A stretch of 32,000 nucleotides of DNA from positions 630,001-662,000 of the forward strand of contig NZ_CP015137.1 in the NCBI RefSeq assembly GCF_001644705.1, written 5' to 3'. Below are positions 7,602 to 32,000 of this stretch, one piece after another. A model generated the notes under the pieces. The model had not been told where the DNA came from, ran no database searches, and saw only the letters and a list, made by a program, of their open reading frames with translations. Numbering within the stretch: position 1 is the stretch's first letter; every line of letters starts with the position of its first letter. The position numbers and the translations under genes are program-made. Source of the stretch: Dickeya solani IPO 2222. Lineage in GTDB: Bacteria; Pseudomonadota; Gammaproteobacteria; Enterobacterales; Enterobacteriaceae.

Positions 7602-8816
7602 ATGAAAATTATTAACGCCGAAGTTTTTGTCACCTGCCCTGGACGTAATTTCGTTACCCTGAAAATTACGACCGCCAGCGGCATCACCGGTATCGGCGAC
7701 GCCACCCTGAATGGCCGCGAACTGTCCGTCGCCTCTTATCTGAAAGATCACCTCTGCCCACAGTTGATCGGCCGTGATGCTCAGCAGATCGAAGACATCT
7801 GGCAGTATTTCTATAAAGGCGCCTACTGGCGCCGGGGCCCGGTAACGATGTCAGCCATTTCCGCCGTGGATATGGCGCTATGGGACATTAAAGGTAAAGC
7901 CGCGAACATGCCGCTCTATCAGTTACTGGGCGGCGCTTCGCGCGCGGGCGTGATGGTTTATTGCCACACCACGGGTCACTCCATCGACGAGGTGCTGGAC
8001 GACTATGCCAGACATCGCGATCTCGGTTTCAAAGCTATTCGGGTGCAGTGCGGTATTCCGGGCATGAAAACCACCTACGGCATGGCGAAAGGCAAAGGGC
8101 TGGCGTACGAGCCCGCCACCAAAGGGAACTGGCCGGAAGAACAAATCTGGTCAACCGAAAAATACCTTGATTTCGTCCCTAACCTTTTTGAGGCCGTGCG
8201 AAATAAATTTGGGTTTGACGAGCATCTGCTTCACGACATGCACCACCGCCTGACGCCTATTGAAGCCGCTCGCTTCGGCAAGAGCGTGGAGCCCTATCGC
8301 CTGTTCTGGATGGAAGATCCGACACCGGCTGAGAATCAGGAATGTTTCCGCCTGATTCGCCAGCACACCGTCACCCCGATCGCGGTCGGCGAGGTGTTCA
8401 ACAGCATCTGGGATTGCAAGCAACTGATCGAAGAACAGCTCATCGACTATATCCGCACCACCATCACCCACGCCGGCGGCATTACCGGCATGCGTCGGAT
8501 TGCGGATTTTGCCTCGCTGTACCAGGTACGCACCGGCTCGCACGGCCCATCCGACCTGTCGCCGATCTGTATGGCCGCCGCGCTGCACTTCGATCTGTGG
8601 GTACCCAACTTCGGCGTTCAGGAATTCATGGGGTATTCCGAACAGATGTTGGATGTGTTCCCGCATAGCTGGACGTTTGATGAGGGGTATATGCACCCCG
8701 GCGACAAACCCGGACTGGGCATCGAATTCGATGAAAAACTGGCGGCCCGATATCCCTACGAACCCGCCTGTCTACCCATTGCCCGTCTTGAAGACGGCAC
8801 ACTGTGGAACTGGTAA
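7602..8816 (+). CDS. rspA: Enolase-superfamily D-mannonate dehydratase (ManD) / starvation-sensing protein RspA
   Basis: 404 aa, nearly colinear with E. coli RspA as I recall it ([54 protein letters not shown] ... [11 protein letters not shown]). SD AAAAAGGA precedes the ATG. Confidence 0.93.
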
Positions 8817-8854
8817 GCGCGAAAAACCGCAACAGACCGACGGGAGAAATAGCG

Positions 8855-14313: not shown

Positions 14314-16008
14314 CTATTTCACCATCGGCAAATTCAGCTGATGTGCCGCCGCGCAGGCTTTGGCGGCGTCGTAGCCGGCATCGGCATGGCGCATTACCCC
14401 GGTAGCCGGGTCATTCCACAACACCCGCGCCAGCCGGGCATCGGCCTGTTCGCTGCCGTCGCAGACGATCACCATCCCGGCATGCTGGGAAAAGCCCATA
14501 CCCACGCCGCCGCCATGATGCAGGCTGACCCAGGTGGCGCCGCCCGACGTGTTCAGCAACGCGTTGAGCAGCGGCCAGTCCGACACCGCGTCCGAGCCGT
14601 CCTGCATCGCTTCCGTTTCCCGGTTGGGCGAGGCCACCGAGCCGCAGTCCAGGTGATCGCGGCCGATAACGATCGGCGCTTTCAATTCACCGTTGCGCAC
14701 CATCTCGTTGAACGCCAGCCCGGCCAGATGCCGTTCACCCAACCCCAGCCAGCAGATACGTGACGGCAACCCCTGAAAAGCGATGCGCTCGCGCGCCATG
14801 TCCAGCCAACGATGCAGATGGTGATTATCCGGAAACAGTTCCTTCAGTTTAGCGTCGGTCTTATAGATATCTTCCGAGTCGCCGGACAGCGCCACCCAGC
14901 GGAATGGCCCTTTGCCTTCGCAAAACAGCGGGCGGATATAGGCCGGGACGAAGCCGGGGAAATCAAAGGCGTTACGCACGCCTTCATCCAATGCGCGCTG
15001 GCGGATATTGTTGCCGTAATCCACGGTGGGCACGCCCATGTGGCAAAAATCCAGCATCGCCTGCACATGCACCGCCATCGAGGCGCAGGCGGCTTTCACC
15101 ACCGCGTCCGGGTTGGCAATACGCTCCTGCTGCCAGCGCGTCACGCTCCAGCCTGTCGGCAGGTAACCGTTGAGCGGGTCGTGGGCGGAGGTCTGATCAG
15201 TGACGATATCCGGTTTCATGCCGCCGGCTTTGGCGCGTTTCACCAGTTCCGGTAATACCTCGGCGGCGTTGCCCAGCAGGCCGACGGAGATGGCTTTCTT
15301 CTGCGCGCCGGCCTCGGCGATCATCGCCAGCGCCTCGTCGATGCTGTCGGTCTTGTAATCCAGATAGCGGGTGCGCAGTCGAAAATCGATGCGGGACTCC
15401 TGACACTCCACCGCCAGCACCGACGCCCCGGCCAACACGCCCGCCAACGGCTGGGCGCCGCCCATGCCGCCGAGACCGGCGGTGAGGATCCATTTGCCGC
15501 TCAGATCGCCGTGATAATGCTGGCGGCCGGCTTCGGCGAAGGTTTCATAAGTGCCCTGTACGATGCCCTGCGCGCCGATGTAAATCCACGATCCGGCGGT
15601 CATCTGGCCGTACATCATCAGCCCGGCCTTATCCAGTTCATGGAAGTGTTCCCAGGTGGCCCAATGCGGCACCAGATTGGAGTTGGCGATCAAGACCCTG
15701 GGGGCGTCGGCGTGGGTGCGAAACACCCCAACCGGCTTGCCGGACTGCACCAGCAGGGTTTCATCCGCTTTCAGTTGGCGCAGGCTGGCCAGAATCGCGT
15801 CGAAGCAATCCCAGTTGCGCGCCGCCTTGCCGATGCCGCCGTACACCACCAGGTCTTCCGGACGCTCGGCCACATCCGGGTCAAGGTTGTTCTGGATCAT
15901 GCGGTAGGCGGCTTCGATCAGCCAGTTTTCACAGTGCAATTCGGTACCGTGCGGCGCACGGACCACACGGGCAACAGAAGAAGAAGCAGTCGAAGAAGAA
16001 ATAGTCAT
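14314..16008 (-). CDS. hutU: Urocanate hydratase
   Basis: Colinear with HutU (…[13 protein letters not shown]…[23 protein letters not shown]…[12 protein letters not shown]…[12 protein letters not shown]…[19 protein letters not shown]…). The ORF track start 16047 overlaps hutH. ATG 16008, with AAGGAA 7 nt upstream, gives 564 aa. Confidence 0.95.
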
Positions 16009-16021
16009 GGCAAATTCCTTA

Positions 16022-17578
16022 TCAAACGGACGCCGGGTCGGCGACATAACTGGGCAACAATGCGGTGATCACAGACGGCCAGCGTTCACCGCAGGCCCAC
16101 TGGCGCATCAGGTCAATATCGGTCGCCATCAGGCGGTCGTGGTCTAAAAACGCCACCTGTTCGCGCACCTGCGTCAGTTCGCGTTCCAGCAACGGCGAGC
16201 TTTTCAGCGGACGATGAAAATCGATGCCCTGTGCGGCGGCCATCGCTTCAATCCCCACCACGGTGGCGGTGTTAAAGCACATGCTGCCGAGACGGCGGGC
16301 GGCGTAGGTCGCCATCGACACATGATCCTCCTGATTGGCGGAGGTCGGCAGGCTGTCCACGCTGCCGGGATGGGCCAGCGACTTGTTTTCCGACGCCAGC
16401 GCGGCGGCGGTCACCTGGGCGATCATAAACCCGGAATTGACGCCGCCGTCGTTAACCAGAAACGGCGGCAGCCCGGACAATGTGCTATCGAGCAGCAGCG
16501 CCATGCGCCGCTCGGAAATGGCGCCGATTTCCGCCACCGCCAGTGCGATGATGTCGGCGGCGAACGCCACCGGTTCGGCGTGAAAATTGCCGCCGGAGAT
16601 CACCTCGTCGGTTTCCGGAAACACCAGCGGATTATCCGACGCGGCGTTGGCTTCAATACGCAGCACGCGGGCGGCGTGCTGCAAATTATCCAGACACGCA
16701 CCCATCACCTGCGGCACGCAGCGGATGGAGTACGGGTCCTGCACCCGGCCGCAGTCGGCGTGCGATTGCAAAATCTCGCTGTCCGTTAGCAAGCTGCTGA
16801 CCGCCGCCGCCACCGCAATCTGCCCTTGCTGACCGCGCGCCTGATGGATGCGGGCGTCAAACGGCTTCACCGAGCCTTTGATCGCTTCCAGCGACAACGC
16901 ACCGGCCACCAGCCCGGCGGCAAACACCTTTTCAGCCTCGAACAGCCCGCGTAGCGCCAGCGCGGTGGACACCTGAGTGCCGTTGAGCAACGCCAGCCCC
17001 TCTTTCGGCCCCAGCACCAGCGGTTCGACACCCGCCCGCGCCAGCCCGTCAGCCGCCGGGATCAACGCGCCGTCGACCCGCGCCTGCCCTTCCCCTAACA
17101 GCAGCAGCGACAGGTGCGCCAGCGGTGCCAGATCGCCGCTGGCGCCCACCGAGCCTTTCTCCGGAATGCAGGGCATCACCCCGGCGTTGAACAACGCCAG
17201 CAAGGTGTCGATTACCTGCAACCGTATCCCGGAATGTCCGCGCGCCAGACTGACGACTTTGGTCGCCATCACCAGACGCAGCACGTCATCCGGCAACAGG
17301 TCGCCGATGCCCACGCTGTGGGACAGCACCAGATTGCGTTGCAGCTCCGCCAGCCGATCCGCTGGAATACGGGTTTGGGCCAGCTTGCCAAAACCGGTGT
17401 TGATGCCATAGACCACCCGGTCCTGACGGACGATGCGCTGCACCGTTTCCTGCGCCGCCTCCACCGCCGCGCGCGCCTGCGCCGCCAGCGTCAGGGTGAC
17501 GTTCCCCCGATAAATGGCGCGCAGCGTGGCAAGATCCACCGCGCCGGGCGTCAGGCAATAGCTTCGGGCTTGTGACAT
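16022..17578 (-). CDS. hutH: Histidine ammonia-lyase (MIO-containing)
   Basis: [26 protein letters not shown] (intact Ala-Ser-Gly MIO triad), NFHAEP and [11 protein letters not shown] are present. The track start 17659 adds 27 unlikely residues. ATG 17578 ([23 protein letters not shown]...) aligns with HAL N-termini and has AGGA 9 nt upstream. Confidence 0.95.
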
Positions 17579-17686: not shown

Positions 17687-18472
17687 TCAATGCGCCAATG
17701 CCTGTAGGGTTTCACTGCGAATTTCTTCCGTCACCCGCGCTTTCAGCGCCATAAATTCCGGCGAGGTTTTAAGGGTATAGTCTCTCGGCCAGGGAAAATC
17801 CACCGCCACTTCGGTTTTAATCCGTCCCGGCCGGGCGCTAAAAATCGCCACCTTGTTGGCCATGAAAATCGCCTCGTCGATGTCGTGGGTGACAAACAGC
17901 ACCGTCTTGCGCGACGACTCCCACACCGACAACAGCAGTTCCTGCATCATGACGCGGGTCTGGTTATCCAGCGCGCCGAACGGTTCGTCCATCAGCAACA
18001 CTTTCGGGTCGTTAGCCAGCGCACGGGCAATGGCGGTGCGCTGCTGCATACCGCCGGAGAGCTGGCGCGGATAGTGGTGTTCGAATCCGTGCAACCCCAC
18101 CTGATGCAGATAATAATCGCTGCGCTCACGCTGCTGCGCCTTGCTGATGCCGCGCTCCTGCAAGCCGAAACAGATGTTCTCGCGCACCGTCAGCCACGGA
18201 AACAAGGTGTAGCTCTGGAACACCATGCCGCGATCGGCGCCGGGGCCGTCCACCAGCGCGCCGTCCAGCCACACCTCGCCGCGGGTCGGCGCATCCAACC
18301 CGGCGATGATGCGCAGCAAGGTCGACTTGCCGCAGCCGGACGGCCCTAAAATAGTGACGAAGTCGTTTTCATGCACCTGATAGTCGATGGGTTGCAGCGC
18401 CGCAATCGCTTCGCCGTGCGGGCCGGTAAACACCCGCTCCACCTGACGAATGGTCAGTTTGCTGTATTTCAT
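17687..18472 (-). CDS. NitT/TauT (nitrate/sulfonate/taurine)-family ABC transporter ATP-binding protein
   Basis: 261 aa. Walker [18 protein letters not shown] and LLMDEPFGALD are present. The short single-domain architecture is typical of SsuB/TauB-type ATPases. A 4-nt ATGA overlap links it to the permease gene. Confidence 0.9.
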   Translation of the reverse strand: MKYSKLTIRQVERVFTGPHGEAIAALQPIDYQVHENDFVTILGPSGCGKSTLLRIIAGLDAPTRGEVWLDGALVDGPGADRGMVFQSYTLFPWLTVRENICFGLQERGISKAQQRERSDYYLHQVGLHGFEHHYPRQLSGGMQQRTAIARALANDPKVLLMDEPFGALDNQTRVMMQELLLSVWESSRKTVLFVTHDIDEAIFMANKVAIFSARPGRIKTEVAVDFPWPRDYTLKTSPEFMALKARVTEEIRSETLQALAH

Positions 18473-19335
18473 CGTATGCTCCAGGCGAATAAACGGCGAT
18501 TAGCGGCCTTGAACAGAAAGTCGGATAACAGCCCGATAACCCCGATCACGATAATGCCGAAGATGATTTGCCCGGTATTGAGCAACGCCTGACTGTCGAC
18601 AATCATGTGACCGATGCCGCTCGACGCGCCGATCAGCTCGGCGACGATCACGTAGGTCCACGCCCAACCCAGCACCAGCCGCAATAACTCGGCAATATCC
18701 GGCGCGGCGCCGGGGATCAGCACCCGGGTGACCACGCTGCGGTTGGAACAACCCAGCGTATAGGCCGCTTCCACCAGATCGCGGCGGGCCGCGCCAACGC
18801 TGACCGCCACCATCAGCACGATCTGGAAAAAAGAGCCGATAAAAATCACCAGGACCTTCTGCATCTCGCCGATACCGGCCCACAGAATCAGCAACGGTAC
18901 AAACGCCGACGCGGGCAGATAGCGGCAGAACGACACAAACGGCTCGAAGAACGCTTCCACCAGTTTGTACGCACCCATCAGGATGCCCAGCGGCACCCCG
19001 ACCAGCGCCGCCAGCAGAAAACCGGCTACCACGCGCATCACCGTCATGCCGATGTCCTGCTGAAAGCCGTAATCGGTAAACAGCAGCACGCCCTCATGCA
19101 ACATGGTCAACGGATCGGCCAGAAAGGTGGCGGACACCGCGCCGCTAAACGTCACCAGCGACCACATCCCGATAAACAGCACGAAGAAACCGATGCCAAG
19201 CGTCCAGCGCAGACGCGTCGATACCGCACGCAGCGGCACCATCAGCGGGTTATGCACCCGCGCCGGCGCCTCCGGCAATGCCGCGGGAGCCATCTTCGCC
19301 GACTGGGTGAGACTGTTCATGTCCGTCGCCTTCAT
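18469..19335 (-). CDS. NitT/TauT-family ABC transporter permease
   Basis: 288 aa and about 6 TM segments. It has BPD_transp_1-like EAA loop region (…EAAYTLGCSNRSVVTRVLIPGAAP…). The start codon lies 3 nt after the binding-protein stop. Confidence 0.88.
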   Translation of the reverse strand: MKATDMNSLTQSAKMAPAALPEAPARVHNPLMVPLRAVSTRLRWTLGIGFFVLFIGMWSLVTFSGAVSATFLADPLTMLHEGVLLFTDYGFQQDIGMTVMRVVAGFLLAALVGVPLGILMGAYKLVEAFFEPFVSFCRYLPASAFVPLLILWAGIGEMQKVLVIFIGSFFQIVLMVAVSVGAARRDLVEAAYTLGCSNRSVVTRVLIPGAAPDIAELLRLVLGWAWTYVIVAELIGASSGIGHMIVDSQALLNTGQIIFGIIVIGVIGLLSDFLFKAANRRLFAWSIR

Positions 19336-19338
19336 CGG

Positions 19339-20301
19339 TTATTTCACATAGCTGGCGTCGTACAGCGCGGACAGATCCGGCTTCTGGCGGATCACTTTCG
19401 CCTCCAGCAACAGTTTGGCCGCTTCCTCGCTGAACCGGGCGATCTCGCCGCTGAAAAAAGCGCGGTTTTGCTCTCTGTCCTGCCAACGCAGGTACTGCGC
19501 CGACTCGGCGAACGCCTGCCCGCTGGTTTTCACCGCCGCCCCCATAATCTCGTAAGCCTTGTCCGGCTGGGTTTTGATCATCTCCAGCGCGTCAAAGTAG
19601 CTTTCCACCAGCGCTTTTCCCACCTGCGGGTGTTGCTTCAGGAAATCCGGCGTGCAGCCCAGCGTGTCCATTACCATCGGGTACTCGAGCGTGGTGGCGA
19701 GGATTTTCCCTTTATCCGGTTGCTGACGCACAGTAGACAGGTACGGTTCATAACTCATGGCGGCGTCGTTCTGCCCGGCGACGAATGCCTGCGCGGCGGC
19801 CTGCGGCGACAGCGTCGCCACTTTCACGTCTTTCAGGCTCATGCCGTTTTTATCCAGAATCCACGCCAGCGCGAAATAAGGCGAGGTACCCGGCGCATCA
19901 ACGCCGATGGTTTTGCCTTTCAGATCGTGCACGCTGCGGATGTCGTTACGCACCGCCAGCCCATCGGCGCCGTAGGACTTGTCGAGCTGGACGATCTGTT
20001 TGAGCATCACGCCGCTGGCCGCCCAGGAGACATAGGTTTCCACCGTGGTGGCGGCGCACTGAATCGCGCCGGACGCCACCGCCAGATGGCGGTCCTTCTG
20101 CGGGATCATTTTCAGATCCACTTTCAGTCCATGCTGCTGGAAAATGCCGGCCTTGTCCGCCAGCGTCAGCGGAGCGAAGCCGGTCCAGCCGGAAATGCCG
20201 ATAGCCACCGGCGTTTCTTCTGCCTGTGCGGAGACGGCGGCGGCCAGACAAACGGCCATCAACGAGATTTTCCAACCGGTACGACCTGGTGCTGTACTCA
20301 T
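19339..20301 (-). CDS. NMT1/SsuA/TauA-like periplasmic substrate-binding protein of the hut-linked ABC transporter
   Basis: 320 aa with signal peptide …LMAVCLAAAVSAQA|EE. The fold family was judged from overall similarity to aliphatic sulfonate / NMT1-type binding proteins. Strong SD AGGAG lies 7 nt upstream. Confidence 0.82.
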   Translation of the reverse strand: MSTAPGRTGWKISLMAVCLAAAVSAQAEETPVAIGISGWTGFAPLTLADKAGIFQQHGLKVDLKMIPQKDRHLAVASGAIQCAATTVETYVSWAASGVMLKQIVQLDKSYGADGLAVRNDIRSVHDLKGKTIGVDAPGTSPYFALAWILDKNGMSLKDVKVATLSPQAAAQAFVAGQNDAAMSYEPYLSTVRQQPDKGKILATTLEYPMVMDTLGCTPDFLKQHPQVGKALVESYFDALEMIKTQPDKAYEIMGAAVKTSGQAFAESAQYLRWQDREQNRAFFSGEIARFSEEAAKLLLEAKVIRQKPDLSALYDASYVK

Positions 20302-21300: not shown

Positions 21301-21596
21301 TGATGATTAGCCTTTGTTTAACCTACACAGAACAGGAAGAAACCAGACGGGACGTTTCAGTGAACAGCCGGCATCGGGCCAGCCGTCCCATACCGACACG
21401 GCGGGAGTCAGCTTCCCGCCCAACGGCACCGCATCGGGCGATGTGTCTGAATCCCGTATTGATGATCAGGATTTCGTAAAGATAACGTCAATGTAACGTT
21501 AAGGATCGATATTTTGATAAATTTACAAATGTGGGGGATAGCGCGTGGATTAAGCACGATGGCCGGTCGGGCGACGTAGCAGACTCCGGCTGAATC

Positions 21597-21617
21597 AGGC
21601 CGCCGAGCCGGCGGCCT
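21597..21617 (-). terminator. Strong GC hairpin downstream of the ClpP-fold gene
   Basis: AGGCCGCCG-agc-CGGCGGCCT forms a perfect 9-bp stem 44 nt after the stop at 21661. There is no clear U-tract. Confidence 0.4.
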
Positions 21618-21660
21618 CAGGGTGGGAGCAAAGGGGTAAAACGGTGTGTCGGGCTGGGGG

Positions 21661-22335
21661 TTATCCCTTATCCCTGCCCGTGACATCGCTGATGAAATAA
21701 GCGACCTCGGCGGCGTGAATCTGCTCTTCGGTCGCGGTCGCCATCCGGATGTTTTCCGCCTCCTGATTGTTCAGAAACAGATGCGCGTCTTCGCTGTACA
21801 ACGCTTTGTTCATCGCCTCATCGCTCAGAGTCGAGCACTGCCGGTAAACATTCTTCAGCATGTCGACGTAATGCCCGGACCACTGCCGCTTGAGTTCCAG
21901 GCTGTCTGGCGCACTGCTTTTCTCATTCTGGTTGACGGTCGGCGGGTGAATCAGGATGGTGGTATCGGTCAGCATCACGCGGTTTTTCGCACCGCAGAAC
22001 AACAGGGTGGCGGCAGACGCCGTCATCGACATATCGACGGTGGTGACGGGAATACGCGAGCTTTTGATCGCCAGATAAGCCGCGTGCGCGCTATCCAGAT
22101 CGCCGCCCCCGCTGTTGAGATACAGATAAAGGTCATGAGCATTTTTGAAGCGCATATTGGCTTCGTCCAGCGCCATCGTCAGCTCGGTAATTTTTTCTTC
22201 ATTGATATTTCCGCTGAAATACATTTTTACCGCGGTAACAGCGTCCGGCGCGACGCCCGGCGTGGTTAGCGTTTTCAGATTGGCCATCGCGGTCACGGGC
22301 AATAACGCCAACAGCAGGCAGAGGCGTTTATTCAT
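21661..22335 (-). CDS. Secreted ClpP/crotonase-fold serine-peptidase-like protein (S14/S49-like, no AAA+ partner)
   Basis: 224 aa with signal peptide MNKRLCLLLALLPVTAMA|N. LYLNSGGGDLDSAHAAYLAI aligns with ClpP INSPGGSVTAG..IYD. MTASAATLLFCGAKNRVML aligns with ClpP GQAASMGAFLLAAG (Ser). ILIHPP aligns with ClpP IMIHQP (His). Confidence 0.7.
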   Translation of the reverse strand: MNKRLCLLLALLPVTAMANLKTLTTPGVAPDAVTAVKMYFSGNINEEKITELTMALDEANMRFKNAHDLYLYLNSGGGDLDSAHAAYLAIKSSRIPVTTVDMSMTASAATLLFCGAKNRVMLTDTTILIHPPTVNQNEKSSAPDSLELKRQWSGHYVDMLKNVYRQCSTLSDEAMNKALYSEDAHLFLNNQEAENIRMATATEEQIHAAEVAYFISDVTGRDKG

Positions 22336-22493
22336 GGTTTTCTTCCCTCATCGGTTATTCGGGCGGTGGTGCGCCATGCCCCTGGGCGGCAGGCAACTTA
22401 CTGTGTTACAAGCCGTCTTTCGGTGGAAACGCCAAAAACGTAACCGGATGTGATGGACATTTCCGTCATCGGTTTCATTGCCGAAGAGAACGG

Positions 22494-22507
22494 GTTGTCT
22501 ATACAGG
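22494..22507. promoter_or_regulatory. HutC-type operator copy 3 (GTTGTCTATACAGG), in the hutC / ClpP-fold-gene divergent region
   Basis: It carries the same TTGTCTATACAGG core as copy 2. It lies 93 nt upstream of the hutC ATG (22600) and ~160 nt upstream of the divergent gene, consistent with autoregulation. Confidence 0.65.
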
Positions 22508-22599
22508 ATTGGTCGTTGTTCGCTACACTGCGATCCTCTGTTGCCTTTGAGGATGACGCCTTGACCGACCTGCAAACCGCCTCCCAACTTGCCGCCGCC

Positions 22600-23310
22600 A
22601 TGAGTGATACCCCCGCGCCGATCTACCAGCGGGTAAAACAGGCGATTATCAGCCAGATTCGCAGCGGCGTCTGGCAATCTCATCAACGGGTGCCGTCGGA
22701 AAGCGAGCTGGTGAATGAACTGGGCGTCAGCCGTATGACCATCAACCGGGCGTTGCGAGAGCTGACCAGCGAAGGGTTTCTGGTGCGGATGCAAGGCGTG
22801 GGCACCTTTGTGGCGGAACAGAAAGCGCACACCGCGATGCTGGAAGTACACAACATCGCCGATGAAATCGCCGCCCGCGGCCACCGTCACAGCAGCCGGG
22901 TGCTGGTGCTGGAAACCCTCAGCGCCGACGGCGATCAGGCCGCGCAACTGGATATCGCCCCCGGCCAGCCGCTGTTTCACTCGCAAATCGTGCATTATGA
23001 AAACGACGTGCCGGTACAACTGGAAATCCGTTACGTCAACCCGCGGGTAGCGCCGGACTACCTGCAACAGGATTTCACCCGCGATACGCCGCATAGCTAT
23101 CTGAGCCGGGTGGCGCCGCTGACCGCCGGCGAGCACCGGGTGGAAGCGGTCGCCGCCGAACCGCGTCAGCGCGACCTGCTGGCGCTGGGCGAGCAGGAAC
23201 CCTGCCTGCTGATCCGCCGCCGCACCTGGCACGGCTCACGGGTCGTCACCGCCGCGCGTCTGTTTTATCCCGGCTCCCGCTATCAGCTATTCGGGCGCTT
23301 TGGCGGTTAG
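22600..23310 (+). CDS. hutC: Histidine utilization repressor HutC (GntR family, HutC/UTRA subfamily)
   Basis: MSDTPAPIYQRVKQAIISQIRSGVWQSHQRVPSESELVNELGVSRMTINRALRELTSEGFLVRMQGVGTFVAE is the HutC wHTH, followed by a UTRA effector domain. The ORF-track start 22450 would swallow the operator. ATG 22600 gives 236 aa, the HutC size. Confidence 0.92.
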   Translation: MSDTPAPIYQRVKQAIISQIRSGVWQSHQRVPSESELVNELGVSRMTINRALRELTSEGFLVRMQGVGTFVAEQKAHTAMLEVHNIADEIAARGHRHSSRVLVLETLSADGDQAAQLDIAPGQPLFHSQIVHYENDVPVQLEIRYVNPRVAPDYLQQDFTRDTPHSYLSRVAPLTAGEHRVEAVAAEPRQRDLLALGEQEPCLLIRRRTWHGSRVVTAARLFYPGSRYQLFGRFGG

Positions 23311-23656: not shown

Positions 23657-26197
23657 TTAACGAATATAGCGGTCAATCAAATTGAAGTTCAGATAGCGGT
23701 AGGTGTCGTCCGCGGTCTTGTCCACCTGCGCCATATACTGCTGGTACTCGTCCGGCGTCGGCAGACGCCCCAGCAGCGAGGCTATCGCCGCCAGTTCGGC
23801 CGACGCCAGATACACATTCGCGCCCGCGCCCAGACGGTTCGGGAAGTTTCGGGTCGATGTCGACACCACCGTCGCCCCGTCCGCCACCCGCGCCTGGTTG
23901 CCCATGCACAGCGAACAGCCGGGGATTTCGACCCGCGCACCGCTCTTGCCGAACACGCTGTAGTACCCTTCCTCGGTCAGTTGCGCGGCGTCCATCCGGG
24001 TCGGCAGCTGCCCCTTGTGCTGATCCAGCAGCTTGCCCGCCGCCCGGAAGTGACCGATGTTGGTCATGCACGAGCCGATGAACACTTCATCGATTTTATC
24101 GCCCTGCACCGTGGACAGCAGACGCGCATCGTCCGGGTCGTTCGGCGCGCACAGGATCGGCTCCCTGATGTCCGCCAGATCGATGTCGATCACCGCGGCG
24201 TATTCCGCATCGGCGTCGGCTTCCAGCAGTTGCGGGTCCGCCAGCCATTTTTCCATGCCCTGCACACGACGCTCCAGCGTGCGGCGATCGCCGTAGCCTT
24301 CGGCAATCATCCACTTCAGCAGGATGATGTTGGAGTTCAGGTACTCGACGATCGGCTCTTTGTTGAGCTTGATGGTACAGCCCGCCGCGGAGCGCTCCGC
24401 CGAGGCATCGGTCAGTTCGAACGCCTGCTCCGCTTTCAGGTCCGGCAACCCTTCGATTTCCAGGATGCGGCCGGAGAAGATGTTTTTCTTGCCCTTCTTC
24501 TCCACGGTCAGCAGACCCTGTTTGATCGCGTAGTACGGGATCGCGTGCACCAGATCGCGCAGCGTGATACCCGGCTGCATCTGGCCGGTGAAACGCACCA
24601 GCACCGATTCCGGCATATCCAGCGGCATCACGCCGGTGGCGGCGGCAAACGCCACCAGACCGGAGCCGGCCGGGAAGGAAATCCCGATCGGGAAACGGGT
24701 GTGAGAATCGCCGCCGGTGCCGACGGTATCCGGCAGCAGCATGCGGTTCAGCCAGGAGTGGATCACGCCGTCGCCCGGACGCAGCGACACCCCGCCGCGG
24801 TTCATGATGAAATCCGGCAGGGTGTGGTGGGTGTTGACGTCCACCGGCTTCGGATAGGCGGCGGTGTGGCAGAAGGACTGCATCACCAGATCGGCGGAGA
24901 AGCCCAGACAGGCCAGGTCTTTCAGTTCGTCACGGGTCATCGGACCGGTGGTGTCCTGAGACCCGACCGACGCCATCTTCGGCTCGCAGTAGGCGCCGGG
25001 GCGAATGCCGGCGACGCCGCAGGCACGGCCGACCATCTTCTGCGCCAGCGAGAAGCCGCGGCGGCTCGGCGCCACGTCTTTGGCCTGGCGGAACACCCCG
25101 CTGTGCGGCAGGCCGAGCGACTCGCGCGCTTTGGCGGTCAGGCCGCGGCCGACAATCAGCGGGATACGGCCGCCGGCGCGCACTTCATCCAGCAGCACGT
25201 CGGTTTTCAGCTCAAAACTGGCCAGCAGTTCGTTGCTGTCGTGGTGGCGTACTTCACCCTGGTACGGGTAGATATCAATCACGTCGCCCATGTTCAGCCC
25301 GGCGACATCCACCTCGATCGGCAGCGCGCCGGCGTCTTCCATGGTGTTGAAGAAAATCGGCGCGATCTTGCCGCCCAGTACCACGCCGCCGCCGCGCTTG
25401 TTCGGCACGTTCGGGATATCGTCGCCCATGAACCACAGCACCGAGTTGGTGGCGGATTTACGGGACGAGCCGGTGCCGACCACGTCGCCGACGTAGGCCA
25501 GCGGGAACCCTTTCCGGTTCAGCGCCTCGATCTGCCTGATCGGGCCGACGGCGCCGGGCTGATCCGGCTCGATGCCGTCGCGGGCGTTTTTCAGCATCGC
25601 CAGCGCGTGCAGCGGAATGTCCGGACGCGACCAGGCGTCCTGCGCCGGGGACAGGTCATCGGTATTGGTTTCGCCGGTGACCTTGAACACGGTGACGGTA
25701 ATTTTTTCCGCCAGCGCCGGGCGGGACAGGAACCACTCGGCGTCAGCCCAGGATTTGACCACCTGCTGCGCGTGGGTATTGCCGGCGTTGGCCTTTTCTT
25801 CCACGTCGTAGAAATTGTCGAACATCAGCAGGGTATGCGATAAGGCGTTGACGGCGACCGGGGCCAGAGCGGGATTATCCAGCGCTTCAATCAGCGGCTG
25901 AATGTTGTAGCCGCCCTGCATGGTGCCCAGCAGCTCGATGGCCTTTGCCGGGGTAATGAGGGGAGAAACGGTCTCGCCTTTGGTGATGGCAGCCAGGAAA
26001 CCGGCTTTGACGTAGGCCGCCTCATCAACACCCGGCGGAACGCGATTGACTAACAGATCGACTAAAAACTCTTCTTCTCCGGCGGGGGGAGTTTTCAACA
26101 ATTCCACCAGCGCCGCCATTTGCGAAGCCTCTAGCGGTTTGGGTACGGTACCTTGCAGGGTACGTTTGGCGACATGCTCACGGTATTCTTTCAACAC
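23657..26197 (-). CDS. acnB: Aconitate hydratase B / 2-methylisocitrate dehydratase (846 aa; apparently shorter than canonical AcnB)
   Basis: [71 protein letters not shown]... is colinear with E. coli AcnB throughout. The Fe-S ligand regions (…SFCHTAAYP…, …IGSCMTN…, …[11 protein letters not shown]…) are present. See the findings for the internal gap and the 3' end. Confidence 0.93.
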
Positions 26198-26584
26198 AGC
26201 GCGTTCCTTATAAACTCAAATAATTCGCTCATAATCGGGTCAATCAGCGATATTCCTGTTGGTGGCGGCTCACGTTTTTCAAATAGAAAACACTCAGGCT
26301 GTTCACAATAAATCAAAGAATGACATTAGCTGGCGTTTTAACACCGATGAAATAAATTAAATAATCATCTCACTTAACATTGCCGGCCATATTAGTTAAC
26401 ATGCAATAGATAAAACCTGCTAAATTCCAATACCGGCCGACGGTAAAGAAAGAAAAATAACAAATCAATGGAATAATAATTAAAAGCATAAAATTCATTT
26501 AATTCTTTTTATTTATCCGCCAATGTGATCGCCGATCAACATTTCCATTCATGATCGCAGCTACTTTACCCCAGTCAAAAAATC

Positions 26585-27922
26585 ATGAATGAACAAGAGG
26601 TGATTGTGTTTAAATTTCTCATAGACTTACTAAAAGATGCCGCCATATTGGTCAGTCTTTTCACCATGTTCGGTAATATCATTCAAAAGAAGAACATCAA
26701 TGATATTATTACCTCAACAGTTAAAACCTACCTTGGGTTTGTTATTCTTTTTGCCAGTGCGAACCTACTTATATCGCCATCATTAAATAATTTCTCAAAG
26801 ATATTTCTGACCGCATTTCATGTTCAGGGCATTGTACCTAACAATGAAGTCGTTATCGTTGTTGCTATGGAAAAACTGGGGCAGATTTATTCTTCAGCTA
26901 TTGCTGTCGGACTTATCGGCGCGATGCTTTTCAATATCATACTGGCCAGAGTCACGCCGTTGAAATATATCGTGCTGTCCGGGCATCATGTTTTTTTCAT
27001 GGTAAGTTGCCTGACCATCATCGCCATGCTACACGGTATCTCCGTTTCCAACTCAGCCATACTGGCCACTTTTATTACCGGAATATGGTGTGTTATTTCT
27101 CCGGCGCTGTTGGTACGCTACTGCCGCCAAATTGACAATTGTGATGAATTAAGAAAATCAGGTGACTTCTCTATCGGCCAGTTCGGTTCCACCAGCTATA
27201 TGTTAGCCGGTTGGCTGGGTGAAAAATTGGGTAACAAAGCGAATGACGCGGAAAAACTGGCTATCCCTACCAGCATTGGTTTTTTAAAAGATAAACAGGT
27301 TTCAACCTTCTTTGTCATGCTGTTGTTCTTTGTTGTTTCAGCGCTGGTCGCAGGGGCCGATCACGTGCAGCTGATTGCGGACGCCGGCAATAAAGATAGC
27401 AGCCACACCAATATATTTCTGTTTCTGTTGAAACAAGCCGGGCTGTTTGCCGCAGGCGTCTACATGCTGACCCGCGGCGTACATATGTTTATTGAAGAAC
27501 TGATTCCGGCGTTTAAAGGCATCAGCGATAAAGTGATTAAGAAATCGATTCCGGCGATCGAAATCTATTCGCTGTTTCCTTATTCCAACAACGCCGTCTT
27601 CATCGGTTTTATCTGCTGTACCATCAGCGGTTTCCTGACCATGATTCTGTTGCCGGTGTTTGGTTATCCGGCGATGGTTCCCAGCCTGTTGTTTACCTTT
27701 GCCAGCGGCGGCGGCGCGGGCATCATCGGTAATGCCACCGGCGGCATTCGTGGCGCAGTGATCGGCGCCGTTGCCTGTGGGATCATTTCGATTGCCGGCT
27801 CCGCATTCATTTTCCAGCCGATCCACGATGCCGGCGTCGATGCGCCGACAACCTACTCAACAACCGACTTTACGCTGCTGGGCCTGTCGCTGCACAGCGC
27901 GTTATCGTTGTTACATCGCTAA
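26585..27922 (+). CDS. UlaA/SgaT-family (PTS ascorbate-type EIIC-like) permease, with no adjacent EIIA/EIIB
   Basis: 445 aa and polytopic. It is colinear with UlaA as I recall it (…KTYLGFVILFASANLL…, …LSGHHVFFM…, …TRGVHMFIEELIPAFKGIS…, …AIEIYSLFPYSNNAV…). An in-frame GTG at 26606 has a good SD (AAGAGG, 5-nt spacer) and may be the true start. Confidence 0.85.
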   Translation: MNEQEVIVFKFLIDLLKDAAILVSLFTMFGNIIQKKNINDIITSTVKTYLGFVILFASANLLISPSLNNFSKIFLTAFHVQGIVPNNEVVIVVAMEKLGQIYSSAIAVGLIGAMLFNIILARVTPLKYIVLSGHHVFFMVSCLTIIAMLHGISVSNSAILATFITGIWCVISPALLVRYCRQIDNCDELRKSGDFSIGQFGSTSYMLAGWLGEKLGNKANDAEKLAIPTSIGFLKDKQVSTFFVMLLFFVVSALVAGADHVQLIADAGNKDSSHTNIFLFLLKQAGLFAAGVYMLTRGVHMFIEELIPAFKGISDKVIKKSIPAIEIYSLFPYSNNAVFIGFICCTISGFLTMILLPVFGYPAMVPSLLFTFASGGGAGIIGNATGGIRGAVIGAVACGIISIAGSAFIFQPIHDAGVDAPTTYSTTDFTLLGLSLHSALSLLHR

Positions 27923-27930
27923 AAATATTG

Positions 27931-28107
27931 ATGTGGTCTGGCGCAACCAGGCCACTTATTTGTTTCAATGACGGTCATTGTTTAAATAGCGGTAATTGTT
28001 TCAATGACGGTAACTGTTTCAATGACGGTAACTGTTTCAATGACGGTAACTGTTTCAATAACGGTCATTGTTTCAATAGCGGTCATTGTTTCAATAGCGA
28101 TACGTAA
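27931..28107 (+). CDS. Hypothetical 58-codon micro-ORF encoding a Cys-rich hexapeptide repeat (speculative; may be non-coding)
   Basis: ATG 27931 to TAA 28105..28107 translates to MWSGATRPLI-CFNDGH-CLNSGN-CFNDGN-CFNDGN-CFNDGN-CFNNGH-CFNSGH-CFNSDT. It is the only frame open across all eight units, and its stop codon follows the last unit directly. It falls below the apparent ~60-aa floor of the supplied ORF track (shortest entries are 60 aa). Against a coding role, there is no SD and the ATG lies at the foot of the terminator hairpin. Confidence 0.2.
   Translation: MWSGATRPLICFNDGHCLNSGNCFNDGNCFNDGNCFNDGNCFNNGHCFNSGHCFNSDT
27933..27966 (+). terminator. Rho-independent terminator after the UlaA-like permease
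   Basis: GTGGTCTGG-cgcaa-CCAGGCCAC forms a 9-bp stem with one G.U pair, followed by TTATTTGTTTC. It starts 11 nt after the TAA at 27920..27922. Confidence 0.7.
27961..28104 (+). repeat. Tandem array of eight 18-bp units (consensus TGTTTCAATGACGGTAAC)
   Basis: Units start at 27961, 27979, 27997, 28015, 28033, 28051, 28069 and 28087. Units 3-5 are identical. The others differ at unit positions 6, 10-11 and 16-18, and the last unit is degenerate. Some units contain the dyad CAATGAC-G-GTCATTG. The array lies between the permease terminator and the sensor-kinase gene. Confidence 0.95.
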
Positions 28108-28234
28108 CACCGCTCTCCAGCGGCTCGCGAAAATCAGGCAACCTTTCCATTTTGCGATGGTCTATTTGCCCCCGGCAATGCCCTACAGGGTGGTGCCGGG
28201 CTTATCCTGTACAACATGACTGACGGAATCCCCC

Positions 28235-29848
28235 ATGTCAGAGGCCATAACCGCCGGCAGCGAGCCGAGAAGCTCTTACAAGTATCAGATAATACTGTAC
28301 TATTTCATTACCTCGCTGGCAGTGGTCGTGGCGACCGGCTGCGCCGTGTTTCTGATTATCAGCAACCTGCTCTACAATGATGTGGCTGAGAAATCACAGA
28401 ATATGGCGTCGATCCTCTCTCAGGACTCCGAGCTCAAGCAAGCGATCAGCAACCGGGACACGGCGGGCTTGCGTAGCCTTATCAATCAGCACTACACCCA
28501 CAGCGATGCCGACTTTATCGTCATCAGCGATCCTGACAATATCCGGCTATACCACCCCGATCCCCTGCAGGTAAACATCGCTATCAAGGACATTGGCAAC
28601 ATCAATCTGCTACGCAATGGGAAAAGCTATACCGTCAAAAATACCGGGTACTCCGGCGCTTCGGTAAAAACGCGCGCCCCCTTTATTCTGGATGGAAAAT
28701 ATATCGGTTACGTTTCGGTGGGCTACACAGAAGCGCATCGACAGGGGTTGCTGGCCAGCTATTTCACGCCTTTTCTCGCGCTGCTTATTTCCGTATTTAT
28801 CCTGATTCTGCTGGGCGGCGTTTTTTCCTACCGTTTGCTGAAAAAACAGATGTCCGGCCTGACGCCGGAAATGATCAATTATAGATATCAGGTCAGAAGA
28901 GCCATTCTGCACGCCATTTACGATGGCGTGATTGCCGTCAGCCCGGAAGGGCGCATCATCGCCATCAACAATGCCGCCAAAAAGATGCTCTCCATCGACC
29001 ATCCCCACGGCCCGCTGACAGGACACAAGATTACCGATTATGTAGTACCGGCCGATTTCTTCTTATCCGCCGAGCGTCAGGAGTGCCACGATGTGGACGT
29101 CGCTTTTAACGGTTCGACGTTTATCGCCAACCGGGCCATCATCCTCAATCAGCAGGATGAGTTTGCCGGTTTCGTGATCAGTCTGAGGGAAAAGACCAAT
29201 GAAACCCTGATGACCAAGCAGGTCAACCACATTAAACATGAAAGCGAAGAGCTGCGGGTTATCAGTCACGAGTTCAAAAATCGGCTGGCCGTTATCTACG
29301 GTCTGATCCAGTTGGGAGAATATGAGCGGGTCAGTCAGTACGTCGCGCAGGAGAATGCCCAACTACAGCAGTTTTATGATGCGATCATCAAATCCTTTCA
29401 CTGTCCGTGCGTTGCCGGGTTGATACTCGGGAAACTGGGGCGCGCGGGCGAACTCGGCATCGATCTGCGTATCGACCCGCTATCCTATTACACCGGCGCG
29501 AACGCGCCGCTGAGCGCCGAGGAAATGGCCTGCATCATCGGTAATCTGCTGGACAACGCACTGGAGGCCACGGTGAAAACGCCAACCCATCCCCAGTCGA
29601 TCGAGCTTTACCTTAATGACGGCAGCGATGAAATCGTACTGTCGGTTCAGGACAATGGTCCCGGCCTCGACCAGATAGCAGCCGAAGCGCTGTTTGCAAA
29701 GGGCGCGACCAGCAAACCAGGCCGTCACCACGGCGTCGGGTTGTATCTGGTGCAGTCACTGGTACAGAAAGCGCGGGGCGAGTGTCTGGTCGATACGGCC
29801 GACGACAACGGCGGCGCGGTTTTTTCAGTTTACATCCCTAAGGTTTAA
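28235..29848 (+). CDS. CitA/DcuS-family sensor histidine kinase (periplasmic PAS/Cache-like domain, TM2, cytoplasmic PAS, SpoOB-type DHp, HATPase)
   Basis: 537 aa. Two TM segments flank a ~130-aa periplasmic domain that carries an R-x-x-H-P motif (IRLYHP) and a later R (KTRAPF), reminiscent of the DcuS/CitA carboxylate-binding residues. The H-box is VISHEFKNRLAVI. N, G1 and G2 boxes are present (NLLDNALEA, DNGPGL, GVGLYLV). Confidence 0.88.
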   Translation: MSEAITAGSEPRSSYKYQIILYYFITSLAVVVATGCAVFLIISNLLYNDVAEKSQNMASILSQDSELKQAISNRDTAGLRSLINQHYTHSDADFIVISDPDNIRLYHPDPLQVNIAIKDIGNINLLRNGKSYTVKNTGYSGASVKTRAPFILDGKYIGYVSVGYTEAHRQGLLASYFTPFLALLISVFILILLGGVFSYRLLKKQMSGLTPEMINYRYQVRRAILHAIYDGVIAVSPEGRIIAINNAAKKMLSIDHPHGPLTGHKITDYVVPADFFLSAERQECHDVDVAFNGSTFIANRAIILNQQDEFAGFVISLREKTNETLMTKQVNHIKHESEELRVISHEFKNRLAVIYGLIQLGEYERVSQYVAQENAQLQQFYDAIIKSFHCPCVAGLILGKLGRAGELGIDLRIDPLSYYTGANAPLSAEEMACIIGNLLDNALEATVKTPTHPQSIELYLNDGSDEIVLSVQDNGPGLDQIAAEALFAKGATSKPGRHHGVGLYLVQSLVQKARGECLVDTADDNGGAVFSVYIPKV

Positions 29849-29871
29849 CAACGAGTTAGAAGATTGACGCT

Positions 29872-30564
29872 ATGGAAAACAAGATCAGCGTATTTTTGGT
29901 TGAAGATAATCACGACATGGCTTTCTTCATTGAAAGCTTCATCAGAAAACACCCAGAATTCCTGCTGTTAGGAAGCGCCGATACCCTTAGCGATGCCCGG
30001 ATAGCCATCGCCGCCCAAAAGCCCGATCTCGTGATGCTGGATAACTATCTGCCCGATGGCACCGGGATCGACATCATGAAACATCTGCGCACCACACAGC
30101 CGGATATCGACGTCATTTTCATCACCGCCGCCAACGACATCGACACGATTAAAACCGCGATACGCCACGGCGCCTGTGACTATCTGGTAAAACCGTTCAT
30201 GCTGGAAAGGCTGGAAGAAGCATTAAAAAACTATCTGATGTTCAGCAGAAAGGTACGCCAGAAATCGCACCTGCCACAGGAAGAGATCGATCGCGTGATA
30301 CGCCAGTCGATCCCCTATAGCGCACCGGCCGGATTCATTTATCCGAAAGGCATTGATGAACTGACGCTCAATCAGGTGCGGGCGGCATTTTCCGGCGAGA
30401 ACGTCCAGCACACCGCCGACAGCCTGAGCGACACGATCGGTATCAGCAAGTCCACCGCCCGGCGCTATCTGGAATACTGCAAAAACATCAAACTGCTGGA
30501 AGCGCACATCCAGCACGGCACCGTCGGACGCCCCCAACGCTTCTACCGTCTGACCTTCAATTAA
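29872..30564 (+). CDS. CitB/DcuR-family response regulator (receiver + C-terminal HTH)
   Basis: 230 aa. The receiver has DD…D (LVMLDNYLPDG), T and K (VKPF). The C-terminal block TADSLSDTIGISKSTARRYLEY is an HTH. It starts 24 nt after the kinase stop. Confidence 0.9.
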   Translation: MENKISVFLVEDNHDMAFFIESFIRKHPEFLLLGSADTLSDARIAIAAQKPDLVMLDNYLPDGTGIDIMKHLRTTQPDIDVIFITAANDIDTIKTAIRHGACDYLVKPFMLERLEEALKNYLMFSRKVRQKSHLPQEEIDRVIRQSIPYSAPAGFIYPKGIDELTLNQVRAAFSGENVQHTADSLSDTIGISKSTARRYLEYCKNIKLLEAHIQHGTVGRPQRFYRLTFN

Positions 30565-30647: not shown

Positions 30648-32000
30648 TCAGTGATCCTGACGCTTCAGCACCTGCACCGCACAGGCGATATCCGGCGCCA
30701 GCCAGCGATCCTCCTGCCAGGCAGCGACGTGTTGACGCAACGCTTGCCAGGCCCGGTGCGTTCCGGTTCCGGCGTTCTCCGGGCCGAGAAACTCCAGCGC
30801 CTGCGCCGCCAGCAGATACTCAATCGCCAGCACGTGCCAGACGTTTTCGGTCAGCTTCAGCAACTTGAGCGCCGCCGGGGTACCCATGCTGAGGTGATCT
30901 TCCTGCAAGCCGGAGGTGACGAAATTATCCACCACGGCGGGCTGCGCCAGTTGGCGGTTCTCGCCGCACAGCGACGCTGCCACATACTGGGCGATCATCA
31001 TGCCGGAATTCACCCCCGGCTGGGCGACCAGAAATGGCGGTAAACCGCTCACCAGCGGATTGATCAACCGATCAAGCCGACGCTCCGCCACCCCGGCCAG
31101 CTCGCATAACGCCAGCGCCAGACTGTCCGCCGCCAGCGCCACCGCTTCGCCATGCGGATTCGCCTGCGACACCACCCGCCACTGTTCCGGCGTCCCCAGC
31201 ACCAGCGGATTGTCGGTGGCGGCATTCAGTTCCATCTCGATGCGCTGCGCCGACGAGGCAAACTGATCGCGGCAGGCGCCGTGAATTTGCGGGATGGAAC
31301 GCAGGCTCAGCGCATCCTGCGTGCGGATGCCTTCACTCTCGGCGATGATCCGGCTCCCGGCCAACAGGGCGCGCAAACGCTGCCCGACCTGCTGAATGCC
31401 CACGCTCGGTTTCAGCGCCAGCACCTCGGCGTCAAACGCCACCACCTGCCCGCGCAGCGCCTCAAAACTCATCGCGCCGGTCACATCGGCCCAGTCCAAC
31501 TGCCGTGCGGCGTCATCCAACGCCAGACAGGCCAGCCCGGTCATGCACGGCGTACCGTTGACCAGCGATAAGCCGTCTTTCGCCCCCAGCGTCACCGGCG
31601 TGAGACCAATGTGCTGCAACGCCTCCTGCGCCGGCAGCACCTGCCCGTGCAGTTCCACCTCGCCGACGCCGATCAGTGCCAGCCCGATATGCGCCATATG
31701 GGTGAGATACCCGACCGAGCCCTGCGACGGCACGCACGGCGTGGCACCCTGATTCAGCAGCGTCAGCAGCGCCTGCACGATCGCCGGCTGAATCCCGGAC
31801 TTGCCGTGACTGTAATTGGCGATCGCCGCACACAGGATGGCGCGGGTCTGTTCAACGGACAGCCGCGGCCCCACGCCGCAAGCGTGGCTCAGCAAGGTAT
31901 TGCGCGACAGCCGCGCCAGATCCGCCACCGGCAGAGTGACATTGCATAACGCGCCCAGCCCGGTATTCACCCCATAGGCCAGCGTTTCGCTGGCCACGAT
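30648..32000 (-). CDS. HAL/PAL-family (aromatic amino acid lyase fold) protein lacking the Ala-Ser-Gly MIO triad; 5' end lies beyond the window
   Basis: YGVNTGLG, NPHGEA (HAL has NFHAEP), SGLQEDHLSM (HAL has [10 protein letters not shown]) and full-length colinearity with HutH are seen. Where hutH in this window reads [14 protein letters not shown], this gene reads GSVG---YLTHMAH (31689..31721). The reading frame is open to the window end. Confidence 0.85.
   Translation of the reverse strand: MVASETLAYGVNTGLGALCNVTLPVADLARLSRNTLLSHACGVGPRLSVEQTRAILCAAIANYSHGKSGIQPAIVQALLTLLNQGATPCVPSQGSVGYLTHMAHIGLALIGVGEVELHGQVLPAQEALQHIGLTPVTLGAKDGLSLVNGTPCMTGLACLALDDAARQLDWADVTGAMSFEALRGQVVAFDAEVLALKPSVGIQQVGQRLRALLAGSRIIAESEGIRTQDALSLRSIPQIHGACRDQFASSAQRIEMELNAATDNPLVLGTPEQWRVVSQANPHGEAVALAADSLALALCELAGVAERRLDRLINPLVSGLPPFLVAQPGVNSGMMIAQYVAASLCGENRQLAQPAVVDNFVTSGLQEDHLSMGTPAALKLLKLTENVWHVLAIEYLLAAQALEFLGPENAGTGTHRAWQALRQHVAAWQEDRWLAPDIACAVQVLKRQDH

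Follow-up and report, generated by a model that had tools for sequence, protein, structure and literature searches.

Analysis of a 32,000-nucleotide window of the Dickeya solani IPO 2222 genome (contig NZ_CP015137.1, positions 630,001 to 662,000) revealed, at its far end, a gene of the histidine ammonia-lyase (HAL) family whose product has lost the residues that make the electrophilic 4-methylideneimidazol-5-one (MIO) group. On balance this protein is probably the enzyme of a cytoplasmic importer-plus-lyase cassette, in which hercynine is turned into urocanate and trimethylamine and the urocanate passes on to HutU. Sequence features, conservation, purifying selection, fold and gene linkage are each directly supported, and it is from these that we infer which substrate is used and which reaction takes place. 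HAL-fold enzymes without MIO are already known; the clade to which the window protein belongs, called here the GSVGY clade after its motif at the MIO site, appears uncharacterised in the literature searched.

The open reading frame (ORF) runs on the minus strand and leaves the window at its end, with the C-terminal 450 codons and the stop codon (30648..30650) inside and about 46 N-terminal codons, estimated from 500-residue orthologs, beyond it. The Pfam profile PF00221 (Lyase_aromatic) matches the translated protein with an E-value of 1.1e-152 (509.5 bits, cut-off 27.3) over profile positions 37-466 of 466, the unmatched part of the profile corresponding to the off-window part of the gene. 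The Ala-Ser-Gly-Asp of true histidases is represented at the MIO site by a lone Tyr (codon 31707..31709), a net loss of three residues. In the pairwise alignment with the product of the window's own hutH (41% identity) this region reads GSVGY, a three-residue gap and then LTHMAH, and an identical gap is seen at the MIO position in HMMER alignments to Pseudomonas putida HAL (1b8f/1eb4). An earlier sequence-only reading of this DNA had claimed the absence of the triad, and both these alignments and codon counting, which returned the same coordinates, bear it out; chance and mis-registration are ruled out, since the motif GSVGY[LI][ST]HMAH is present in all 120 of the 120 best database homologs and turns up in at least 120 species. 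The changes of NFHAEP to NPHGEA and of TSANQEDH to TSGLQEDH, also pointed out in that reading, were seen again in the alignment with the window hutH. In P. putida HAL numbering, the set of residues that supports MIO has gone from the window protein, with Asp145 deleted, Tyr280 replaced by Leu and Phe329 by Pro. Since the Ala-Ser-Gly triad is cleanly missing, MIO formation and canonical MIO chemistry are, on these alignments, excluded for the window protein, as had been argued before.

The fold is nevertheless kept, again in line with the earlier claim, as judged from the PF00221 match and from the AlphaFold model of the Dickeya zeae ortholog (P0001, 92% identical to the window protein; pLDDT 91.3, pTM 0.92). 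This model superposes on P. putida HAL (1b8f) with a template-modelling (TM) score of 0.90 and a root-mean-square deviation of 2.2 Å at 39% sequence identity, and on ergothionase (6s7j) with a TM score of 0.88 at 27% identity. HAL is also the nearest relative in sequence (304-331 bits, against 174 bits for 6s7j) and shares with the window protein the length class, the cytoplasmic location, the placement in hut loci and the residues that handle the imidazole, the carboxylate and the beta-proton; the window protein differs from it in lacking Ala-Ser-Gly-Asp and in carrying Leu for Tyr280 and Pro for Phe329.

A closer view of the active site was obtained from a column table of 152 sequences in P. 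putida HAL numbering, in which Tyr53 is the beta-proton acceptor, His83 and Glu414 bind the imidazole and Gln277 and Arg283 bind the carboxylate. All five residues are invariant in MIO-less and MIO-containing sequences alike, down to 36% identity. In this table Ala-Ser-Gly-Asp145, Tyr280 and Phe329 change jointly, the first to a lone Tyr with a three-residue gap, the second to Leu and the third to Pro, Ala, Cys, Thr or Gly; Phe is found at position 329 in no member of the MIO-less clade. Only columns 142-145 and Tyr280 separate MIO-less from MIO-containing sequences cleanly, and Leu occupies the Tyr280 position in 86% of diverse clade members. A wider homolog search, covering 1.84 billion cluster representatives, showed that the GS[VL]GYL replacement recurs down to about 36% identity. 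Remodelling is confined to the residues that form MIO or lie against it, and those that handle the substrate or act as base are preserved. Such a pattern is what one would see in an enzyme whose leaving-group chemistry has changed, and it does not match a drifting pseudo-enzyme.

In the proposed mechanism the importer would take up a histidine methylated at N-alpha, with the betaine hercynine (N-alpha-trimethylhistidine) as the most likely candidate. Within the lyase the imidazole would be held by the equivalents of His83 and Glu414 and the carboxylate by those of Gln277 and Arg283, while the Tyr53 equivalent would remove the beta-proton and trimethylamine would leave. No electrophilic cofactor would be needed, since trimethylammonium is already a good leaving group, and the space that MIO leaves free may have been reshaped (ASGD to Tyr, Tyr280 to Leu, Phe329 to Pro) to take the bulky quaternary ammonium. 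The product, trans-urocanate, would induce via HutC and enter the HutU-HutI-HutF-HutG pathway. A sulfur-free product is favoured because the adjacent hydratase is a canonical hutU (scores in Table 1).

MIO-less members of this fold have been characterised before, namely ergothionase (PDB 6s7j) and the Shewanella betaine lyases (bioRxiv 10.1101/2025.08.13.670108 and 10.64898/2026.04.22.720169). Swoo_3913 of Shewanella woodyi converts histidine betaine to urocanate and trimethylamine (bioRxiv 10.1101/2025.08.13.670108) and is inactive on histidine, carnosine and imidazole-lactate; in S. oneidensis, SO_3057 is an ergothionase and SO_3299 an N-pi-methyl histidine betaine lyase. According to the authors of these studies, all MIO-deficient lyases strongly need the trimethylamino group. 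The features by which these papers recognise an MIO-less trimethylammonia-lyase, that is, no MIO together with a retained catalytic Tyr and the substrate-binding residues of HAL, are common to the Shewanella enzymes and the window clade. The likeness extends to the Leu at the Tyr280 position (QDALSLR in the window protein, QDPLSFR in the ergothionase TdETL and QDALSIR in Swoo_3913) and, for Swoo_3913 and SO_3299, to the lack of Lys at ergothionase position 384. In these comparisons the TdETL sequence was recovered from the 6s7j alignment found with the ergothionase-like protein P0218, and that of Swoo_3913 from an error-ridden optical character recognition of supplementary Fig. S5, which was used for motifs only and left out of the tree. 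There are also clear differences. The MIO site of the known enzymes (SSIGEGD in TdETL, SSVGLSD in Swoo_3913) is one residue shorter than that of HAL and keeps the Asp, and Phe329 is kept as well. The Shewanella enzymes, about 26% identical to HAL, are periplasmic and work together with flavocytochrome urocanate reductases in anaerobic respiration, whereas the window protein is cytoplasmic and importer-coupled, with a proposed catabolic route through HutU. TdETL comes closer in physiology, with a cytoplasmic, catabolic and cofactor-free elimination of trimethylamine, but its product passes to thiourocanate hydratase, the place taken by HutU in the proposal for the window protein. The GSVGY clade is distinct from the characterised trimethylammonia-lyases in active-site solution, compartment and proposed physiological role and probably also in lineage, and the differing indels suggest a separate loss of MIO.

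The linkage of the gene to an importer was examined with a degenerate-codon motif scan over one genome per species, which found the motif in at least 120 species, the matches being seen as 8-kb blocks not centred on the gene. Loci were annotated by tblastn against reference proteins; 102 of the listed loci had visible upstream DNA and 18 had none. Among the matches listed are Pseudomonas, Paraburkholderia, Pantoea, Erwinia, Serratia, Scandinavium, Leclercia, Halomonas, Salinicola, Paracoccus, Labrys, Gluconobacter, Polaromonas, Paenibacillus, Brevibacillus and Sulfobacillus. An importer gene lies directly upstream in 87 of the 102 loci: on the same strand and immediately adjacent, hutV, the ATPase of a ProX/OpuAC-type betaine ATP-binding cassette (ABC) system, was found in 50, the ATPase of an OccT-like ABC system in 33 and a BCCT betaine/carnitine/choline carrier (Pfam BCCT 1e-113; NF047988) in 4. 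A further 2 loci have hutV within about 340 nt upstream, and about 8 lie without an importer in a tsaD ... SDR context. Among these matches hut genes flank nearly all importer-linked loci, and the gene immediately downstream is an MIO-type hutH in 33 loci, hutC in 16 and hutI in 6. Because of these importer counts, the unit is best read as a portable cassette of importer and MIO-less lyase that appears to have been put into hut loci, with three unrelated importer families filling the importer part; two of the three are canonical quaternary ammonium carriers. The partner importer in Pseudomonas is the ProX-type HutXWV, while Dickeya, Pantoea, Klebsiella, Paraburkholderia and Rhizobium have the OccT-like ABC system of the polar-amino-acid type.

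Rhizobium plasmids carry the variant GSAGYLTHNAH, outside the reach of the motif scan. In two of them (L130 8986..11647 and L131 8986..10479) each locus has two genes annotated as hutH, and the MIO-less one (GSAGYLTHNAH, QDALSLR, QEDF) follows an OccT-like ABC operon. On tumorigenic plasmids of R. tumorigenes a gene for a solA-type N-methyl-amino-acid oxidase stands after the MIO-less lyase gene; this homolog points to N-methyl chemistry, though not necessarily to a betaine. In a metagenomic locus (L009 3693..6568) a 50%-identical MIO-less protein (P0122) is followed by a DAO-family FAD oxidase, with a hutI-like amidohydrolase nearby and no adjacent importer.

In Dickeya, where the operon is cut by the window end and the gene context was read from relatives, the lyase gene is the fifth and last of an operon that encodes an SBP_bac_3 binding protein, two permeases, an ATPase and the lyase; this arrangement is found in D. 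zeae, in a Dickeya locus whose lyase is 98.5% identical to the window protein (L132) and in Pantoea ananatis, and in all three the operon sits between hutF-hutD and hutI-hutG. The remaining genes of the operon thus lie past the window end, as the sequence-only reading had supposed. Its observation that hutH and hutU are 13 kb away also stands, but not the remoteness from the hut system that this seemed to imply. In D. zeae the lyase start codon comes 10 nt past the stop codon of the ABC ATPase, and the N-terminus has no signal peptide. Klebsiella variicola has the identical five-gene operon, with hutD as the sole hut gene in view. In L132 gene calling splits the second permease of the OccT-like importer into fragments of 49 and 197 residues (8498..9213), which suggests a frameshift or a sequencing error.

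The binding protein of the OccT-like system bears on a competing possibility, which is considerably less probable than the hercynine reading but deserves attention: the lyase could act on another N-alpha-substituted histidine, such as N-alpha-mono- or dimethylhistidine, a histidine opine (histopine) or an undescribed histidine conjugate of plant or fungal origin, and still yield urocanate. The residues that bind the histidine moiety are all kept, many of the host bacteria are plant-associated, and the solA-like oxidase of R. tumorigenes or the DAO-family oxidase of L009 adjoins some members. Moreover, the nearest solved relatives of the binding protein are OccJ and NocT (E 4e-64), which accounts for the annotation of such systems as octopine/nopaline transporters, and NocT binds histopine (PMC5740067). 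The contact residues of OccJ given in that work were mapped onto 25 linked binding proteins, which display one common pocket signature, EYWWDA(V/S)RTA(A/Q)TVYD, compared with EYWWAASRGNQTTAN in OccJ. The keto-acid signatures are Ser91-Asn111-Thr163-Ala164-Asn202 in OccJ and Gly97-Met117-Ser169-His170-Ser207 in NocT (PMC5740067), and the same five positions read Val/Ser-Ala-Val-Tyr-Asp in 25 of the 25 linked proteins. Because these five residues are replaced, the linked proteins are most likely not opine binders; uptake of opines by an Occ/Noc system, as annotated in the style of KEGG K10018-K10021, was discarded, and histopine was set aside as the main substrate because the linked proteins lack the signature and other members of the family are paired with betaine carriers. 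The replacements in the pocket include two Asp, which argues for a ligand whose alpha-substituent is cationic and partly hydrophobic; a methylated ammonium would be compatible, though a free one may also fit. More than half of the listed family is coupled to ProX-type or BCCT betaine carriers, which also speaks against this alternative, and so does the need of the known MIO-less lyases for a fully methylated ammonium, a secondary amine being no better a leaving group than ammonia.

It is improbable that the protein is an inert paralog, that is, a nonfunctional hutH copy kept as a subunit that binds histidine or urocanate or has a regulatory role, or as an importer partner. This view gains from the missing MIO and from Pseudomonas. 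In P. marginalis the homolog P0120 is 73% identical, carries the GSVGY motif and stands in the order hutU-hutTu-hutXWV-[gene]-hutH-hutTh-hutI-hutG, a slot that corresponds by gene order to hutH1 of P. fluorescens SBW25; the window gene most likely belongs to this hutH1 family as an ortholog. The original genetic study reportedly called the P. fluorescens hutH1 copy nonfunctional. The gene is dispensable for growth on histidine, as far as stated in a figure legend of PMC8034625. As for P. aeruginosa, the literature search found no function for PA5093, the sole paper with context mislabelling it as hutG; from the gene order of strain PAO1 we take it to be probably the hutH1 counterpart. However, Tyr53 and all the substrate-binding residues are invariant down to 36% identity, which is more than a binding protein would need, the alterations of the pocket are specific, recur (Leu280) and show no sign of drift, and the gene has been co-transferred with three types of importer. 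The ratio of nonsynonymous to synonymous substitution rates (dN/dS) is 0.066 against the D. zeae ortholog, as low as that of hutH (0.052 as control), and 0.14-0.21 against the Pantoea, Klebsiella and Pseudomonas orthologs. The window protein is 98.5% identical to an intact 500-residue ortholog (P0278). The gene is intact and under purifying selection, so that the decaying pseudogene which the sequence-only reading had allowed for is ruled out by these values. Among the roles offered there, a different enzyme is retained, and a pseudo-enzyme or binding protein is disfavoured by the invariant catalytic and substrate residues together with the low dN/dS.

An ergothionase, which would convert ergothioneine to thiourocanate and trimethylamine, is very unlikely. 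It is the classical MIO-less member of this fold, with the structural resemblance to 6s7j given above and Leu280 in common. In contrast, the column of TdETL Lys384, which is essential for the thiolate, holds Tyr in 20 of 20 clade members and Lys in the ergothionase-like P0218, P0221 and P0250, the bit score to 6s7j is well below that to HAL, and the neighbours are canonical hutU, hutI, hutF and hutG with no genes for thiourocanate hydratase or a desulfhydrase. In a bootstrapped neighbour-joining (NJ) tree computed from a numpy distance matrix, with Swoo_3913 excluded, the ergothionase clade has 100% support and joins the GSVGY clade in 4% of replicates. Other HAL-like lineages without the canonical ASG were noticed in the homolog set (P0198, P0128, P0140, P0239 and P0141, with G[ST]LDYSL, GSIGSLTHMAH, GSLGTGEL and GSLSIGAY); in a comparison with PDB sequences both P0198 and P0128 are nearer to HAL than to ergothionase.

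There is also little to recommend a cofactor-independent histidase that would deaminate L-histidine without MIO as a second or alternative enzyme. The gene is annotated as hutH in many genomes, is linked to HutXWV and takes the place of hutH, without an MIO hutH in sight, in the 8-kb views of Salinicola (L047), Albidiferax (L026), Paenibacillus (L025) and P. taiwanensis (L086), with the orders hutU-BCCT-gene-hutI-hutG in Salinicola and hutC-hutU-gene-hutD-hutI in Albidiferax. MIO-deficient HAL mutants, however, are reported to have next to no activity on histidine, an MIO hutH is the next gene downstream in the 33 loci already mentioned, and the MIO-less Swoo_3913 has no histidase activity; nor does P. 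fluorescens hutH1 sustain growth on histidine, to the extent covered by the same legend (PMC8034625). For the hutH-slot lineages taken separately there is a slim chance of a true histidase, in which the inserted Tyr and the remodelled pocket would give an undescribed cofactor-free elimination of ammonia.

Several points weigh against hercynine as the substrate. The literature searched contained no biochemical or genetic test of any GSVGY-clade member on hercynine. The replacement at the MIO site, a lone Tyr, three residues shorter and with Asp145 lost, is unlike that of the proven trimethylammonia-lyases, so the pocket need not have the same geometry. The Asp at OccJ position 202, which binds the free alpha-ammonium in LAO/HisJ, is kept in the linked binding proteins, and histidine would fit as well. 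The ProX-type HutXWV of Sinorhizobium meliloti reportedly carries histidine with high affinity and accepts betaines as well, and linkage to HutXWV alone is therefore no proof of a betaine substrate. Neither an importer nor hut genes came into view in the 8-kb blocks of about 8 of the 102 loci. Lastly, monophyly of the GSVGY clade is weakly supported, with NJ bootstrap values of 16-33% and low support for the deep branching; with this limit on the tree, the ASG-less members form a conserved clade with conserved neighbours, which was the outcome looked for in the phylogeny proposed earlier.

The coordinates of the gene, of its active-site positions and of the other features of the window are collected in Table 1.

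Table 1. Features of the Dickeya solani window (coordinates are those of the 32,000-nucleotide stretch; residue numbers are those of P. putida HAL)
Feature	Position	Strand	Basis
MIO-less HAL-family (HutH1-type) lyase gene	30648..32000	-	ORF and translation, PF00221, ortholog identity, dN/dS
GSVGYLTHMAH, MIO site	31689..31721	-	alignments; codon counting
Tyr equivalent to Tyr53 (beta-proton acceptor), kept	31974..31976	-	column table
QDAL of QDALSLR: Gln277 kept, Tyr280 to Leu (codon 31308..31310)	31308..31319	-	alignments
Arg283 equivalent, kept	31299..31301	-	alignments; column table
Pro in NPHGEA instead of Phe329, the residue packing against MIO	31155..31157	-	alignments
Glu equivalent to Glu414 (imidazole binding), kept in LQEDH	30900..30902	-	alignments
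hutU (urocanase)	14314..16047	-	TIGR01228 958 bits; thiourocanate hydratase models below cut-offs
Genuine MIO-containing hutH (GSVGASGD)	16022..17578	-	NF006871 743.5 bits, TIGR01225 693.7 bits, both above cut-off
hutC repressor gene	22450..23310	+	tblastn 63% identity to Pseudomonas HutC at 22582..23301; L132 synteny
Strain-specific block parting the lyase gene from hutC	23657..30564		Pfam/NCBIfam; missing from L132; lower GC

In L132 hutC follows directly after the lyase gene, and is itself followed by a CxxCxxCC gene and by an NMT1-type ABC-hutH-hutU operon, which are also present in the window. The block that parts lyase gene and hutC in the window contains an acnB-like gene (846 residues), a phosphotransferase-system EIIC-GAT gene and DpiB/DpiA-like two-component genes; it is missing from L132 and partly present in D. 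zeae (L001), and the GC fraction is 0.40-0.53 at 26-30 kb compared with 0.60-0.66 in the hut genes. It has the appearance of a strain-variable insertion dividing the hut locus. The gene was rightly said to converge on a CitA/DcuS-type two-component system, here of the DpiB/DpiA type, but a partnership or functional tie with it was discarded, the block being absent from the 98.5%-identical relative. Just upstream of the DpiB-like kinase gene, an ORF at 28004..28219 starting MTVTVSMTVTVSMTVTVSITVIVSIAVIVS reflects an 18-nt tandem repeat. Between the CxxCxxCC gene and hutC the window has about 1.1 kb of extra DNA with respect to D. zeae (21307..22490), in which an ORF at 21661..22335 on the minus strand gives a weak ClpP-family match (Pfam E 3e-13) and is overlapped by a second ORF on the opposite strand. 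The ABC importer that precedes the genuine hutH-hutU operon (17687..20301) is of the NMT1/SsuA type, neither the ProX-type HutXWV known from Pseudomonas nor HisJ-type.

The annotation of the family is affected in two ways. Full-length orthologs fall just below the TIGR01225 cut-off of 539.15 (532.1 for P0278, 536.4 for P0001 and 539.0 for P. marginalis, against 693.7 for the window hutH) and pass the looser NF006871 subfamily cut-off of 524 with 546-556 bits, which explains their annotation as histidine ammonia-lyase; the NF006871 model thus admits MIO-less proteins under the histidase name. An operon used as a Klebsiella species marker is annotated as an octopine/nopaline transporter (PMC12623006), and this importer is probably mis-named.

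If the proposed function is correct, a gene that has been named histidine ammonia-lyase or dismissed as a nonfunctional hutH would gain a function in hundreds of genomes of Pseudomonas, Klebsiella, Pantoea, Erwinia, Dickeya, Paraburkholderia and Rhizobium. It would represent a second structural route of MIO loss in the HAL fold, probably as a separate event, in which the change of Tyr280 to Leu recurs. Hercynine, which is plentiful wherever ergothioneine is made by fungi, actinomycetes and cyanobacteria, would serve generally as a carbon and nitrogen source one step away from the classical Hut pathway. The cassette would also add a source of trimethylamine, cytoplasmic and aerobic, in Proteobacteria associated with plants, soil and the gut, Klebsiella variicola and K. 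quasipneumoniae among them.

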